Shown here in pieces: positions 1 to 5,303 of a stretch of 5,303 bases of DNA (position 1 is its first letter; each line of letters opens with the position of its first letter). The position numbers and the translations under genes are program-made. Under the pieces are notes generated by a model that ran no database searches, was not told where the DNA came from, and saw nothing but the letters and a program-made list of their open reading frames with translations. The DNA comes from a virus (Duplodnaviria > Heunggongvirae > Uroviricota > Caudoviricetes), in the IMG/VR virus record IMGVR_UViG_2690316224_000003; one strand, 5' to 3'.

Positions 1-281
1 ACATACATGCCGTAAATCTGCCCGACACCATCAATCAGAGGCCAGGGGCGTCCTGTATATGCCTGCGTGGTCAGCAACGAAAGCGACACTTCGCCACCTG
101 TAATTTCAGGATAAAGCACGCCGGAAAGCACGATGCGATCATCACCTGCGCCGATATACTGCCAGCTTGCTGAACGGTTAACGCGTTCATTTTTCACATG
201 CCGCCAGCTTTTGTTTTGCTGTAACTGCTGATGCGGCAATGTGCGCAGCTCAAAAACAAACATGCCGTAGATCATCATCAT
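1..281 (-). CDS. U: Phage tail protein U (P2 gpU-like), N-terminal part; 3' end lies beyond the window start
   Basis: My translation of the minus strand from the ATG at 281 (in-frame ATGs also at 287, 278, 275) gives MMMIYGMFVFELRTLPHQQLQQNKSWRHVKNERVNRSASWQYIGAGDDRIVLSGVLYPEITGGEVSLSLLTTQAYTGRPWPLIDGVGQIYGMYV, open to the window edge. The GVLYPEITGG / PWPL.DG.G.IYGM pattern resembles the P2 gpU family as I remember it. A GAGGAG Shine-Dalgarno at 290-295 overlaps the T stop codon (294-296), and the position directly downstream of T matches the P2 FETUD order. It is absent from the ORF track only because it runs off the window. Confidence 0.72.
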   Translation of the reverse strand, partial: MMMIYGMFVFELRTLPHQQLQQNKSWRHVKNERVNRSASWQYIGAGDDRIVLSGVLYPEITGGEVSLSLLTTQAYTGRPWPLIDGVGQIYGMY

Positions 282-289
282 GGCCATGA

Positions 290-295
290 CTCCTC
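290..295 (-). promoter_or_regulatory. Shine-Dalgarno (GAGGAG) for gene U, overlapping the T stop codon
   Basis: Minus-strand sequence reads TGAGGAGTCATGGCCATGATGATG. The spacing is 8 nt to the ATG at 281 and only 2 nt to the ATG at 287, so 281 is the more likely start. The arrangement suggests translational coupling of T and U. Confidence 0.6.
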
Positions 296-3116
296 AATCT
301 TTATCGTAAAAACTGCCACGCCCGGCACGGGCGCGCCGTTCCATTTCTGCCCTGACCATTTCGCCAATCAGTTTCGCCAGTTCGCGGGGATTCTGTGTAA
401 CAACGTTATGCAGATGAACATGAATTTCACCGCCAAATCCGGAGGCAACAGGCTCCCGGTTACGGGAAGTTGCAGGAACTGATGCCACTGGCGATCGTAT
501 AGCCTCCGCCACCGGGCGGGAGCTGGCCGCAACAACAGGGACCAGCGCCGGAGGCAGCGGAGCCGGAACCACGGGTGTGATAGTAATTGCGGGGGCAGGC
601 TTACTGACCTGCGCAATCTTCCGCTCCTGCCACTCCCCACGAACAGCAAGTGCGCGGGGCAGGTTCTTAAAGACAATATCGCCGGGGCCAATGCGTTTTT
701 TCGTCTCATCAACCAGCTTACCTGTGTTATCAGCAATTTTGCTGAGTCTGCGTAGCGTACCGGTATTGTTGTCTGTGAGCGGTTTGTTGTCTCTGGGTTT
801 ATCGCCTTTTTTGTCGTCGACCTTATCTGACGGGGCCGGGCCGGGAGTCCATGGTTTCTGAACCATTTTCTTGAGAACCGGATCCCATTCCCACATTACA
901 GGAGCCTTTGAAGCGTTCTCTATTTTCTTTCTCGCCCGTTCCGCTTCATCCGGAAGCACTCCGAGCTTTTCAAGTATCCACGCCAGTGAATCCATCAATG
1001 CTTTTGTTGGCGTCAGGACAAGCTCTATCGCTCCACCGAGTACCCTGCCGAATACCTCGCCAGCACTGGTACATTTATCCAGCGTTTCCTTGCTGGACTC
1101 CATCGGTGACAGCAGCGATTTAAACCAGTTAAAGACCTGAATAATCCCATCGCGCACGACATCAAAAACTGGACCGAACCGTTCAAAGGTTTCGCGCAAC
1201 GGAGCCAGCCGTTCCATAATCCCACTGAACACCCCTGCATAAAACGCCTTGATGGGTTCCCAGTATTTCCAGATGAGAACCGCCGCAGCCACAAACGCAG
1301 CAGCAATCAATCCGACCGGGCTGAACAGCGCCCCGATAGCGCCCCCCAGTAACGAAACGGAACCCGTCACCATTCCCCATAGTGCTGGCAGGAGCCTGAC
1401 AGCATTCATTGATCCGGTCAGGAGGGAAAAGCCAAGACGCAGTTTTGCCAGCGGGCCAGCAAGCACACCAATAGCCAACGACAACGAGCCGACCGTTGCA
1501 GTCATCGCCAGCAATGCCCCACCTGCAATCAGTAGCTGGCGCGTCAGTGCCGGATGGGCCTGCGCCAGCGCCGTCACCTTTGATACCACCCGCGTGAGCC
1601 ACTGCGTGACAGAACGCAGCGGACCGTCAATCAGATCTGCAATGCGGATGCGCAACCCTTCCCATGCACTGCCGAGTGATTTCAGATCGCCGTCAAGGTT
1701 GTTGTCCATAACCTTTGCTGTGCGTTCAGCCTCACCGCGCGCGCCTTCAAGTTCTTTTCTCAGTTTGGGTAAGGAGCCGTCACCCGCTGCATCAACGAGC
1801 GCCATAAACGATGTGAAAGCCTCTTCTCCGGCAATGTCCTTAAAGAACGATACCCGGTCAACTTCCCCGTATTTGCGGGTGGCTTTATAAAGGTCGGCCA
1901 GTACATCCTCCATCGGGCGCATTTTGCCGTTCGCGTCAGAGACAGCCACACCCAGCTCTTTCAGCGCCTCTGCTGCCGCCTTTGGCGGTGATGCCAGACG
2001 AGCCAGGCTGGCACGCATTGCCGTCCCGGCATCACTCCCTCTGATGCCCATATTCGCCAGCACGCCCGCCATCGCAGCGGCCTGCTCCAGCGATATTCCC
2101 AGCTTACCCGCCACCGGACCTGCATATTTCATGGTTTCGCCCAGCGCGCGAAGGTCAGTGTTGGTACGGGTAAACGCCGCTGTAAGCGTGTCGCCAACCC
2201 GGTCCATCTGGTCAGCAGAAAGGCCGAACTGCGTCAGGATATTTGAGCCAATATCTGCCGTCTCGCCGAGATCCATACCGCCAGCCGTTGCCATGCTCAG
2301 CACTCCGGGAAGCGCAGCCTGAATGGCCTGCGGTGTGAAGCCTGCCATTGCAAGAAATGCCTGCCCACTGGCGGCATCGCCTGCAGTGAACTGCGTTTCA
2401 GAGCCAAGTTTTAACGCCTGTTCACGCAGCGCCTTAAACTGCGGGCTGTTCTGGTCGATTCGCGTCAGTGCCTGAACGCGGGACATCTCTTTCCCGAACC
2501 CGATCGCAGGCTGCAAAAAACGCCCGGCAGCATAGCTGCCAGCCGCTGCCGCACCAATTGCCAGCGCACCACCTGTTTTCAGTTTTCCCGCGGTTTCCTG
2601 CGCGCGCGAATACCGCTCACGCGCACGTGTTACACGCGCAAGCGCCTGCCGTTCGCGTTCAAGCTGGTTGTTGTACTGTTCGGTGCGTCTGATGGCCTGC
2701 TGGATGGTGTTATCGCTGCCTGTCAGGGAAATGCCGTGGCGTTTCAGCTCTCCGCCAAGCTCCCGCATTTTCTGAATTTCCCGTGTGCGCGATTCATTCA
2801 GGCGTTCAAGCCGGGTGCTTAACTGCTGCATCAGCTTTTGTTGTTTTTCGCTGAGCACTGTACCCGTGCGTTGTAACTGATTAAGGGCGTTAAGCTGGCG
2901 TCGTGCTTTCACGATGCCCGCATCCGCTTTACTGACAGCGTCACGGGCGCGCTCAAATGAACGCGCCTGACGCTCGAGATTTTTGATCGCCCCCTGCGTT
3001 CGCTGGATGGAGTCACCAAACTGCCCCATCAGGCGGCGGGCGTTTTCGGCAGGCCGGGTCAGCCTGTCAACGGCGCTGAAAGCGACCCGGATATCAAGAG
3101 TCTTCATTGTCTGCAT
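294..3116 (-). CDS. T: Phage tail tape measure protein (P2 gpT-like), 940 aa
   Basis: Single long ORF from the track. It has a charged Arg/Glu/Gln/Leu-rich N-terminal ~180 aa (coiled-coil-like), a central region around aa 240-375 (FTAGDAASGQAFLAMAGF...GVLANMGIRGSDAGTAMRASLARL) typical of the tape-measure core, a Gly/Ala/Leu-rich hydrophobic stretch at aa ~527-617 (nt ~1266-1538), and a Pro-rich segment at aa ~838-884 (nt ~465-605). It sits between the chaperone E/E' and U as in P2. The start could instead be the second in-frame ATG at 3107, which has better spacing to a weak GGGA. Confidence 0.9.
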   Translation of the reverse strand: MQTMKTLDIRVAFSAVDRLTRPAENARRLMGQFGDSIQRTQGAIKNLERQARSFERARDAVSKADAGIVKARRQLNALNQLQRTGTVLSEKQQKLMQQLSTRLERLNESRTREIQKMRELGGELKRHGISLTGSDNTIQQAIRRTEQYNNQLERERQALARVTRARERYSRAQETAGKLKTGGALAIGAAAAGSYAAGRFLQPAIGFGKEMSRVQALTRIDQNSPQFKALREQALKLGSETQFTAGDAASGQAFLAMAGFTPQAIQAALPGVLSMATAGGMDLGETADIGSNILTQFGLSADQMDRVGDTLTAAFTRTNTDLRALGETMKYAGPVAGKLGISLEQAAAMAGVLANMGIRGSDAGTAMRASLARLASPPKAAAEALKELGVAVSDANGKMRPMEDVLADLYKATRKYGEVDRVSFFKDIAGEEAFTSFMALVDAAGDGSLPKLRKELEGARGEAERTAKVMDNNLDGDLKSLGSAWEGLRIRIADLIDGPLRSVTQWLTRVVSKVTALAQAHPALTRQLLIAGGALLAMTATVGSLSLAIGVLAGPLAKLRLGFSLLTGSMNAVRLLPALWGMVTGSVSLLGGAIGALFSPVGLIAAAFVAAAVLIWKYWEPIKAFYAGVFSGIMERLAPLRETFERFGPVFDVVRDGIIQVFNWFKSLLSPMESSKETLDKCTSAGEVFGRVLGGAIELVLTPTKALMDSLAWILEKLGVLPDEAERARKKIENASKAPVMWEWDPVLKKMVQKPWTPGPAPSDKVDDKKGDKPRDNKPLTDNNTGTLRRLSKIADNTGKLVDETKKRIGPGDIVFKNLPRALAVRGEWQERKIAQVSKPAPAITITPVVPAPLPPALVPVVAASSRPVAEAIRSPVASVPATSRNREPVASGFGGEIHVHLHNVVTQNPRELAKLIGEMVRAEMERRARAGRGSFYDKD

Positions 3117-3568
3117 TCCCGCTGCGAAGTGCCGCCCGCTCGCGCCAGCTAACCACTTCGCCGGGCGTCATCATGAAGATTTCGAGCGTTCAAGCCGGGT
3201 GCTTAACTGCTGCATCAGCTTTTGTTGTTTTTCGCTGAGCACTGTACCCGTGCGTTGTAACTGATTAAGGGCGTTAAGCTGGCGTCGTGCTTTCAATATG
3301 CCAGCATCCGCTTTACCGACAGCGTCACGGGCGCGCTCAAATGAACGCGCCTGACGCTCGAGATTTTTGATCGCCCCCTGCGTTCGCTGGATGGAGTCAC
3401 CAAACTGCCCCATCAGGCGGCGGGCGTTTTCGGCAGGCCGGGTCAGCCTGTCAACGGCGCTGAAAGCGACCCGGATATCAAGAGTCTTCATTGTCTGCAT
3501 TCCCGCTGCGAAGTGCCGCCCGCTCGCGCCAGCTAACCACTTCGCCGGGCGTCATCATGAAGATTTCG
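2801..3568. repeat. 384-bp direct tandem duplication, copies 2801-3184 and 3185-3568, spanning the T 5' end plus the last 68 bp of E'
   Basis: Base-by-base comparison: 3185-3568 matches 2801-3184 at a constant offset of 384, with 4 substitutions (2912, 2913, 2919, 2933 vs 3296, 3297, 3303, 3317) plus the junction base (2801 g vs 3185 a). The E' tail 3117-3184 is identical to 3501-3568. Confidence 0.9.
3171..3500 (-). pseudogene. Truncated tape-measure N-terminal fragment (T residues 1-105 followed by SKSS and a stop), created by the 384-bp duplication
   Basis: The track ORF 3171..3500 matches T residues 1-105 apart from the S->G and V->L differences, then crosses junction J1 (3184/3185) into E'-tail DNA out of frame and terminates. 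It has the same upstream context as full-length T. Confidence 0.6.
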
Positions 3569-3744
3569 GCGGGCGACCAGTTAAAAATGGCGGCAATATC
3601 CGCCACCAGATCTTCGATGTGCTCAAAGCACACCAGGGTGATTACGCTGCCGTCTCCTGCACGCTCTTCGCGCCAGAGTCTGGCTCGCTCATAAAATTTA
3701 CAGCCACAGCGCACAACTGAATAAAATCGCGTGACGACATTTTT
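3478..3744 (-). pseudogene. Duplicated E' (-1 frame) segment inside the middle repeat copy
   Basis: The track ORF 3478..3714 encodes a 78-aa protein identical to the native E' ORF 4144..4380 despite 3 nucleotide differences, all synonymous. It is preceded by a duplicated A7 slippery run at 3740-3746. Confidence 0.5.
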
Positions 3745-4166
3745 TTAATCATCACTTCATCCAGTCGTGGCGAGGTCACGCGAGGCAACAGCGTGAACAT
3801 GGTATCCGCTTTCAGATTCAGCACATCAGACAGCGACAGACCACGCAGGGATCCCGCCTGCTCAATAGCCCCGGTGATCTCCACATAATGTTGTTTTTCG
3901 CTGAGCACTGTACCCGTGCGTTGTAACTGATTAAGGGCGTTAAGCTGGCGTCGTGCTTTCAATATGCCAGCATCCGCTTTACCGACAGCGTCACGGGCGC
4001 GCTCAAATGAACGCGCCTGACGCTCGAGATTTTTGATCGCCCCCTGCGTTCGCTGGATGGAGTCACCAAACTGCCCCATCAGGCGGCGGGCGTTTTCGGC
4101 AGGCCGGGTCAGCCTGTCAACGGCGCTGAAAGCGACCCGGATGTCAAGAGTCTTCATTGTCTGCAT
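3642..4166 (-). pseudogene. In-frame chimeric ORF: tape-measure N-terminus (aa 1-92), one junction His, then chaperone E residues 44-124
   Basis: The track ORF 3642..4193 reads MQTMKTLDIR...TVLSEKQ then H then YVEITGAIEQ...SVQETAA. The likely start is the ATG at 4166; the track's 4193 is a GTG. Junction J2 lies at ~3888/3889. Whether it is expressed or functional is unknown. Confidence 0.5.
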
Positions 4167-4682
4167 TCCCGCTGCGAAGTGCCGCCCGCTCACGCCAGCT
4201 AACCACTTCGCCGGGCGTCATCATGAAGATTTCGGCGGGCGACCAGTTAAAAATGGCGGCGATATCTGCCACCAGATCTTCGATGTGCTCAAAGCACACC
4301 AGGGTGATTACGCTGCCGTCTCCTGCACGCTCTTCGCGCCAGAGTCTGGCTCGCTCATAAAATTTACAGCCACAGCGCACAACTGAATAAAATCGCGTGA
4401 CGACATTTTTTTAATCATCACTTCATCCAGTCGTGGCGAGGTCACGCGAGGCAACAGCGTGAACATGGTATCCGCTTTCAGATTCAGCACATCAGACAGC
4501 GACAGACCACGCAGGGATCCCGCCTGCTCAATAGCCCCGGTGATCTCCACATATGTGATTTTTTCGCCACCACGCTCAATTGGCCGGGAAAGTTTTACAC
4601 CACGTTCGACAGCCATATCCTCACCTGCCGTCACATCATCCGCTACGGTGTTATTCCGGGTTTCAGTATCGATATCTTTCAT
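4144..4682 (-). CDS. E': Tail assembly chaperone E+E' fusion made by programmed -1 ribosomal frameshift (predicted ~179 aa)
   Basis: Zero-frame codons ATT AAA AAA ATG (4415-4404) lie in a run of 7 A (4406-4412). The -1 frame has a TAA at 4411-4413 and is open from 4410 to the stop at 4144-4146, so a shift in the A-run gives E(1-92) then NVVTRFYSV then the 78-aa track ORF 4144..4380. The 3' end of E' overlaps the T-type start codon at 4164-4166, as in the P2 E/E'/T arrangement. Confidence 0.7.
4308..4682 (-). CDS. E: Tail assembly chaperone E (P2 gpE-like), zero-frame product of 124 aa
   Basis: ORF with a strong Shine-Dalgarno AAGGAG (4690-4695) 7 nt upstream of the ATG at 4680-4682. It lies between tail tube FII and tape measure T, as P2 gene E does, and contains an internal A7 slippery run followed by an open -1 frame. 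Confidence 0.8.
   Translation of the reverse strand: MKDIDTETRNNTVADDVTAGEDMAVERGVKLSRPIERGGEKITYVEITGAIEQAGSLRGLSLSDVLNLKADTMFTLLPRVTSPRLDEVMIKKMSSRDFIQLCAVAVNFMSEPDSGAKSVQETAA
4404..4415 (-). other. Putative -1 programmed frameshift slippery site (A7 run) of E/E'; a duplicate copy lies at 3738-3749
   Basis: Homopolymeric A7 in the mRNA sits exactly where the -1 frame opens. No obvious downstream pseudoknot was assessed. Confidence 0.6.
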
Positions 4683-4689
4683 CAGTTGT

Positions 4690-4695
4690 CTCCTT
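4690..4695 (-). promoter_or_regulatory. Shine-Dalgarno (AAGGAG) for gene E
   Basis: Minus-strand sequence reads CTGAAAAGGAGACAACTGATG, a 7-nt spacer to the start codon. Confidence 0.7.
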
Positions 4696-4705
4696 TTCAG
4701 TCAGA

Positions 4706-4724
4706 GGCGACGCACTGCGCCGCC
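4706..4724 (-). other. GC-rich hairpin in the FII-E intergenic region (8-bp stem, 3-nt loop); not a canonical intrinsic terminator
   Basis: Plus-strand ggcgacgc (4706-4713) pairs with gcgccgcc (4717-4724), with one G-U wobble on the mRNA strand. No U-tract follows on the transcript. Confidence 0.3.
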
Positions 4725-4737
4725 TGCATATTACTTA

Positions 4738-5250
4738 TCAGCCAAGCCCAAGCGCGGAACGAATGCGGTCAGGCACAATGTCCTTGCCGTCCTTCCGGTA
4801 GATGTGGTTCAACAGGTCGATTTCCCACAGCGGGCGATCGTTAACGCTCAGCTTGTAGTAGGTGTTTTTGACAGCGTAAGTGTGTGATGTGGCTTCGCCC
4901 TGTTTGGCCTCCCCCATATCAATTTCCGTCACACGCCCGCGCATCTCGATTTCATACAGATCGCTTTCTGCATCGGTGTAGTATTCACCCGCAAAACGCA
5001 GCAGCGTGCCGTCAATCGTGCCGCCATATTTAAGGAACAGCGCACGAACAGCTCCCCCCATGACAAAACTCGCATCAAGCGCGGAGTCGTCCAGACCGAG
5101 ATCAATACTTACCGCCCCCATCATGCCACCACCACGATAGCTGTCGGTTTTGCGCGTCAGTTTGGGTGGCGTGACGGATGTCACTTTACCCACTTCGTTT
5201 TCACCATCCACAAACAACGTAAAAAAGCGAAGATGTTTTGGTACAGCCAT
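4738..5250 (-). CDS. FII: Major tail tube protein (P2 gpFII-like), 170 aa
   Basis: The track ORF contains PKLTRK..SYRGGGMMGAV..DLGLDD, which matches the contractile-tail tube family as I remember it. A GGAGGTG Shine-Dalgarno lies at 5255-5261. It is immediately upstream of E in P2 order. Confidence 0.88.
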   Translation of the reverse strand: MAVPKHLRFFTLFVDGENEVGKVTSVTPPKLTRKTDSYRGGGMMGAVSIDLGLDDSALDASFVMGGAVRALFLKYGGTIDGTLLRFAGEYYTDAESDLYEIEMRGRVTEIDMGEAKQGEATSHTYAVKNTYYKLSVNDRPLWEIDLLNHIYRKDGKDIVPDRIRSALGLG

Positions 5251-5303
5251 CAGGCACCTCCCAGCACCGCAAATGCGGGACCAAAGAATTCATCAGTAAA
5301 CGA
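5250..5303 (-). CDS. FI: C-terminal 17 codons of the upstream gene, presumably tail sheath (gpFI-like); partial
   Basis: The minus-strand frame ending in TGA at 5250-5252 reads SFTDEFFGPAFAVLGGA then stop, and the stop overlaps the FII start. Identity is inferred from P2 gene order only; the fragment is too short to recognise by sequence. Confidence 0.45.
   Translation of the reverse strand, partial: SFTDEFFGPAFAVLGGA
5255..5261 (-). promoter_or_regulatory. Shine-Dalgarno (GGAGGTG) for FII
   Basis: Minus-strand sequence reads GGGAGGTGCCTGATG. The upstream gene's TGA overlaps the FII ATG (TGATG). Confidence 0.65.

Follow-up and report, generated by a model that had tools for sequence, protein, structure and literature searches.

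An in-frame fusion of tape-measure and tail-chaperone sequences in an Escherichia coli prophage contig, probably arising from false duplication during assembly

The tail module and its native chaperone cassette

The stretch of DNA analyzed here, referred to as the window, is 5,303 bp long and makes up all of contig CYDA01000068.1, in the same orientation, from the Escherichia coli draft assembly GCA_001285085.1. Its minus strand encodes the tail module of a temperate, P2-type phage belonging to the genus Xuanwuvirus (P88-like), and both ends of the contig lie inside prophage genes. The window is 92-96% identical to Citrobacter phage Shae_phiSM, Xuanwuvirus P884B11, Escherichia phage 520873, and P88, and its identity to E. 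coli prophages reaches 98%. Following the minus strand, the native, single-copy tail tube gene FII (4738-5250; 170 aa; PF04985 Phage_tube, 154.9 bits) is followed by the native chaperone gene E (4308-4682; 124 aa) and by the -1 extension of E, E' (4144-4411), which ends 23 nt inside the start of the tape measure gene T. The full-length T gene (294-3116) encodes 940 aa, or 937 aa from the annotated second ATG at 3107, and matches PF10145 PhageMin_Tail with 197.8 bits. The 5' part of gpU (1-281; PF06995 Phage_P2_GpU) is cut by the contig end, leaving a 94-residue partial gene.

The backbone of the module has a natural mosaic structure. Over positions 1-2250 it is nearly identical to the prophage of FDAARGOS_1059 (0-1 mismatch per 250 nt) and over positions 2500-5000 to that of strain 4/0, with the crossover at around 2250-2500; in mid-T, the strain 4/0 prophage differs from the window by 33-57 mismatches per 250 nt.

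The product of native E matches phrog_103 ("tail protein"; 1.7e-36) and, over residues 29-109, gives a sub-threshold match to PF10109 Phage_TAC_7 (21.7 bits, below the 25-bit cut-off). A PDB sequence search with E returned no meaningful match, and the AlphaFold model of E (pLDDT 46.5) was unusable for placing a breakpoint. The native slip site is a run of seven A residues on the coding strand (4406-4412; ATT AAA AAA ATG), from which the -1 frame is open onward; E itself runs 32 codons beyond this site. The E' extension matches phrog_1756 (2.6e-41) and, read as E+E', PF06528 Phage_P2_GpE with 45 bits, against a cut-off of 23 bits. One copy of the A7 slip site was present in each of the eight relatives tested, including the divergent P88, in which the flanking codons are different, and a wider regular-expression count found one slip site in 19 of 20 loci and none in the other (L018). 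In related RefSeq and GenBank records (eight loci; in the first of them at 6094-6249 and 6258-6632), the label "GpE family phage tail protein" is given to E' as a stand-alone 51-aa entry, E carries the name "tail protein" or "hypothetical protein", and the E+E' frameshift product is unannotated.

The gpE and gpE+E' chaperone of phage P2 is said to have been described by Christie et al. in 2002 as relying on a programmed -1 frameshift, and on sequence grounds the native E/E' pair is predicted to follow the same logic. The two systems are alike in the position of the genes between tube and tape measure, the homopolymeric slip site, the GpE-family extension, and the overlap of E' with the start of T. 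They differ in the slip site, TTTTTTG in P2 vs. A7 here, and in the length of E: the P2 products are 91 aa (E) and 142 aa (E+E') long (PMC3091744), with E ending soon after the slip site, whereas E has 124 aa here. A functional analogy, with no sequence relation claimed, can also be drawn to gpG/gpGT of phage lambda, which resemble E/E' in gene position and logic and whose zero-frame part and frameshift extension bind the tape measure and the tube protein, respectively (PMC5009743).

Overlapping repeat copies and the chimeric reading frame

The region between the body of T and the 5' part of E is present in an overlapping triplication, with offsets of 384 and 666 nt that add 1050 bp in total. 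Both underlying repeats, one of 665 nt with four mismatches (3223-3887 vs. 3889-4553) and one of 383 nt with four mismatches (2802-3184 vs. 3186-3568), are far above chance. We divided the repeated DNA into segment a (T codons ~93-105), segment b (the T start and the end of E'), and segment c (the remainder of E' and E codons 44-124). The window then reads as the rest of T, a, and b (to 3184); a single A; a, b, and c (3186-3887); a second single A; and b, c, and d (from 3889 on). Copy 1 (a+b; 2802-3184) comprises part of the intact T and a 68-nt E' remnant (3117-3184), and full-length T and the 68 nt upstream of it are undisturbed. Copy 2 (a+b+c; 3186-3887) carries T codons 1-105, E', and E codons 44-124. 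Copy 3 (b+c; 3889-4553) carries T codons 1-92 with the first two bases of codon 93, E', and E codons 44-124, and runs on into the unique E/FII flank. The native E/E' pair lies between the tube and tape-measure genes, in contrast to the duplicated cassette (3478-3887), which lies between two T starts, an abnormal context.

Junction J1 (3185) connects the end of copy 1, inside E', to the start of copy 2, on the T codon 105 side. Its product is out of frame with E' and yields a truncated T (3171-3500, minus strand) of 109 aa, T(1-105) followed by SKSS, which was deposited as 106 aa. This fragment matches phrog_28 and phrog_10546. The latter family, of "unknown function", matches T residues 3-107 at 1e-37 to 1e-43, and looks like a family built from tape-measure N-terminal fragments rather than an independent protein.

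Junction J2 (3888) connects the end of copy 2, at E codon 44, to the start of copy 3, at T codon 93, and here the product is in frame. The resulting chimera, T(1-92)-His-E(44-124), occupies 3642-4166 on the minus strand and is 174 aa long, or 183 aa from a GTG at 4193 and 171 aa, as deposited, from a second ATG at 4157. Its residues 1-92 are those of T, apart from two allelic substitutions relative to the full-length copy (G62/S and L69/V); residue 93 is a new His encoded by CAT at 3888-3890, made up of CA from T and the orphan base at 3888; and residues 94-174 are exactly E residues 44-124. The peptide across the junction reads ...LSEKQHYVEITG.... In profile searches, residues 4-104 of the chimera matched the tape-measure family phrog_28 and residues 90-173 matched phrog_103, of which only positions 37-118 were aligned, and there was no TAC_7 match at E<=0.01. 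The J2 breakpoint falls inside the TAC_7-matching region of E (residues 29-109) and not at a domain boundary.

An earlier, sequence-only reading of this DNA had described an in-frame fusion of the T N-terminus to the E C-terminus through one His codon, with its own copy of the frameshift cassette, and translation of the ORF with residue-by-residue matching bore out this anatomy exactly. The duplicated slip site is present at 3740-3746, as seven T on the plus strand and A7 on the coding strand, and its 31-nt context is identical to that of the native site at 4406-4412. From there the -1 reading is open to the stop at 3478 (duplicated E' frame, 3478-3745, minus strand), and a product T(1-92)-H-E(44-92)-E' is formally readable, as that reading had also proposed; the modelled chimera+E' scores 44.5 bits against PF06528. 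The chimera cassette is thus a base-for-base copy of the native P2-type cassette. Set against the P2 system, the chimera is without E residues 1-43, has 92 T residues in their place in the reading frame, and was unseen in the other sequences searched. We regard the chimera as a confirmed feature of the deposited sequence.

Retention of these signals is the formal case for a selected function, in which the chimera and its frameshifted form would act as a decoy or poison that binds tape-measure or tube subunits and, for example, blocks tail assembly of superinfecting P2-like phages or tunes that of the prophage itself. Such a product would have a T-type start, an in-frame fusion, a slip site, and E', and the lambda precedent, with its tape-measure-binding G part and tube-binding extension, provides an analogy (PMC5009743). 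We nevertheless hold this explanation to be extremely improbable: the breakpoint leaves E with an incomplete TAC_7-like region (residues 29-109), the out-of-frame J1 gives a 109-aa T stub without evident purpose, a selected function predicts a second occurrence and none was found, and every point against a plain real duplication, set out below, applies to it as well.

The two seams share an unusual form. At each, the end of the left parent is followed by one base that comes from neither parent and then by the start of the right parent, with no N present, and at both J1 and J2 the deposited strand has A as the orphan base. The right parent opens with the 3 nt that would also have come next in the left parent (GCG at J1 and TGT at J2). 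Wider similarity around the breakpoints was not above chance for J1, for which 72% of random pairs scored as high, and was marginal for J2 (7%).

Microhomology-mediated tandem duplication is known in bacteria, and the arrangement resembles it in its tandem direct repeats, its novel junctions, and the 3 nt of parental identity at each. We therefore considered a genuine triplication, in which two illegitimate joins at the 3-nt microhomologies would have produced overlapping tandem duplications of 384 and 666 bp. The joins would probably have been made between co-resident related prophages, or gene conversion from one such prophage would have followed them. Translation from the duplicated T starts would then give the chimera and the truncated T as passengers of a recent rearrangement, neutral or mildly harmful. 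The seams themselves lend this account some weight, since the junction k-mers are novel, as expected of real breakpoints, and the parental identity is found at both. All three T starts also share identical upstream sequence and the slip-site context is preserved, and short, SNP-marked units with unique junctions should be resolvable by paired-end data. Yet two rare events would have to fall within one 1-kb stretch, both leaving an orphan A before the microhomology, a base by which these joins differ from known microhomology-mediated duplications, and J2 breaks within the putative chaperone domain. On balance, we consider a genuine triplication unlikely.

Non-proofreading polymerases add a single extra A at 3' ends, and the orphan base would also fit chimeric molecules formed in vitro during library preparation or amplification. 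For plus-strand synthesis, however, the orphan base stands before, not after, the shared 3 nt. Individual chimeric molecules are also rare and would be unlikely to win the consensus twice per kilobase. An origin in such molecules, or in a mixed culture of two strains, would likewise make the arrangement an artefact, and is in our view very unlikely.

Allele pattern and occurrence of the arrangement

The three copies differ at eight sites (about 8 in 700 nt), and at all eight, both alleles were found in independent natural prophages (4/0, FDAARGOS_1059, CFSAN018748, K_EC180, P88, and others). The sites correspond to window positions 2912, 2913, 2919, 2933, 3093, 3142, 3595, and 3601. The alleles exist in unrelated strains from different countries. 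Copy 1 is A-type (CGCT-A-G) and is 100% identical to the E. coli 4/0 prophage over segments a+b. Copy 3 is B-type throughout (ATAC-G-A-G-T), and its alleles occur in the CFSAN018748 and K_EC180 prophages; two comparison genomes were picked as best matches to copy 3, so that allele probabilities computed with them are overstated. Copy 2 (ATAC-A-G-A-C) is B-type at u110-131 and A-type from u291 on, and the switch falls within a 159-nt stretch that is identical between the templates. Read along the plus strand, both seams join an A-type left side to a B-type right side.

At u110-131, copy 2 agrees with copy 3 and not with copy 1, whereas at u291 and u340, copy 1 agrees with copy 2 and not with copy 3. 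Because these two patterns of sharing conflict, neither order of two duplications explains the data without extra recombination, and the allele sharing looks like two haplotypes and one recombinant rather than a tree. We thus rejected a simple duplication in situ followed by drift, as the differences are pre-existing alleles and their distribution fits neither order. Microhomology-mediated duplicates are identical at birth and later acquire private mutations; the copies here differ instead by pre-existing alleles in a non-tree-like pattern.

This patchwork weighs on the explanations introduced above in different ways. A genuine triplication would need at least two conversion tracts to account for the natural alleles. 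RecA-dependent recombination soon removes direct repeats of this kind (346-665 bp, 99% identity), which would leave little time for several conversions. In its favor, the mosaic backbone implies that the lineage recombines with its relatives, and co-resident related prophages do exist, for example in ETEC4077. The in vitro or mixed-culture explanation gains from the fact that two templates are needed in any case, and homologous haplotype switches resemble template switching.

The closed genome of E. coli ETEC4077 (L010 and L011) carries two co-resident prophages of this type at two chromosomal sites. As an instance of A-type and B-type co-residence it had to be rejected, since its prophages are identical over the 702-nt E/E'/T-start region. 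Identical pairs of this sort are repeats at which short-read assemblies break or go wrong.

We then asked how often the arrangement occurs in other sequences. The module was present in 1,377 of 5,426 complete E. coli genomes, at 1,535 places with up to three per genome, and all 1,535 places had the collapsed form, in which 2,201 nt of the window fall on 1,151 nt. None of the 5,426 complete genomes covered 80% or more of the J2 80-mer, and J1 gave no joined match in them, only two-piece matches about 386 bp apart. The J2 32-mer and J1 30-mer were absent from the GTDB species representatives (one genome per species), IMG/VR, and the JGI metagenomes. When the chimera was compared with 5.8 billion protein clusters, only T fragments and E proteins were returned; none was homologous over the full length of the chimera, and the junction peptide was in none of them. 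All 13 phage records examined were collapsed, and the 20 related loci that we fetched had one T start each and the same FII-E-T order. The exact FII sequence occurred in 33,891 blocks; 10 loci among the matches listed were all canonical, and none was of this lineage.

Two matches to the chimera deserve mention as separate observations. One (P0073) is an E'-into-T read-through in a Logan contig. The other (P0074), on a 6.6-Mb NCBI contig, is 259 aa long and has an N-terminus (MQFDYIIIGAGSAGN...), which looks from its sequence like a flavoprotein dinucleotide-binding motif, joined to T residues roughly 40-180. Both may be indel errors or prophage remnants.

The deposited gene calls on CYDA01000068.1 include the 171-aa chimera and the 106-aa truncated T. 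The exact 937-aa T product corresponds to CTW23939.1/WP_053890905.1 (E. coli) and is recorded on this contig only. Exact-protein look-ups returned no record for the chimera (183, 174, or 171 aa), the truncated T (109 or 106 aa), or the 940-aa T. The absence of the arrangement from about 1,535 module copies and from every other collection searched argues against a genuine triplication.

Origin of the arrangement and its meaning

The reading that we favor, and regard as probable, is a false duplication, in which variant sequences of two related prophages or strains were chained together during scaffolding or gap closing. The isolate or culture would have contained two closely related Xuanwuvirus prophage sequences, either co-resident, which is common for such prophages, or from two strains, and three overlapping, near-identical pieces would have been set end to end instead of being merged: an A-type piece leading into full-length T (window 1-3184), then a recombinant A/B piece of 702 nt (3186-3887), and finally a B-type piece that continues into E and FII (3889-5303). 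A single filler base would have closed each seam. The true locus would then be an ordinary FII-E/E'-T-U module of 4,253 bp, made up of window positions 1-3184 and 4235-5303, and the 171-aa chimera and the 106-aa truncated T would be by-products of annotation.

Several observations are consistent with such a false duplication. The whole contig is a 5.3-kb draft piece that ends within prophage genes at both ends, and contigs tend to break inside multi-copy elements. The junctions are unique across all of the collections searched, the copies combine two natural haplotypes like a patchwork, and copy 2 changes type where short-read and k-mer methods lose phase. The same orphan A, a putative filler base, is found at both seams. 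Some assembly tools leave one-base scaffold placeholders, and a placeholder of this kind later written as A would suit the form of the seams.

Published accounts of assembly methods and errors are in keeping with this reading. Scaffolding and gap-filling tools proceed greedily and produce false joins, and for one widely used pipeline, the source of about 30% of the bacterial assemblies in GenBank at the time, 4-10 misassemblies per bacterial genome are reported (PMC5320598). GapFiller extends both gap edges by 30-mers with a majority vote at allelic differences and requires an overlap of at least 10 nt for closure (PMC3446322). We rejected this closure rule as the origin of the seams, which are without such an overlap.

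The closest parallel is the heterotype false duplication, in which, typically, allelic variants come to lie one after the other, separated by a gap (Ko et al. 2022, PMC9516828). The window shares with these the near-identical variants in tandem, the variant-specific SNPs, the seam, and the spurious genes. It differs in that the variants there stem from heterozygosity in diploid vertebrates, whereas the "alleles" here would come from co-resident prophages, or from different strains, within a bacterial isolate; in that one base, and not a run of N, forms the seam; and in that heterotype false duplications are defined by read depth and pair discordance, whereas the present arrangement is known from the contig sequence alone.

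Some features sit less well with an assembly origin. De Bruijn graph assemblers do not invent junction k-mers, the 3-nt parental identity at both seams is the microhomology expected of real illegitimate recombination, and J2 is in frame. In addition, the contig is listed in "2 samples", which may be a GenBank/RefSeq twin or a second isolate; if a second, independent isolate had the same contig, the odds of a real arrangement would rise.

The sequence-only reading had gone on to propose a real chimeric gene, possibly dominant-negative. That proposal found no support: the nature of the contig, the uniqueness of the junctions, the haplotype patchwork, and the putative filler bases point to an artefact. 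The same reading had named the absence of the duplication from the real genome as what would count against it, and the indirect evidence leans that way, although it falls short of proof. We conclude that the living genome probably does not contain the chimera. The fuller claim, that the triplication is real and that an expressed T(1-92)::E(44-124), frameshifting into E', is able to disturb tail assembly of its own or related phages, seems to us unlikely.

Taken as an artefact, the case is mainly a caution that a striking in-frame fusion with its own recoding signal can come from the stitching of draft contigs. The probably spurious 171-aa and 106-aa coding sequences are publicly recorded and can seed false protein families or be mistaken for newly gained genes.

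In a real arrangement, translation of the chimera would begin, as for native T, at a T-type initiation site overlapping an E' stop, and the protein would be made in the late FETUD-type operon. Because the cassettes are identical, it would shift into E' at the rate of E itself. By analogy with lambda, part of a tape-measure-binding chaperone, together with a tube-binding extension when shifted, would be tethered to 92 helical T residues, and a dominant-negative effect of such a protein is conceivable. Even so, the arrangement would be confined to a single strain and show no sign of selection, and would represent a one-off natural experiment on the interaction between a P2-type chaperone and the N-terminus of the tape measure.
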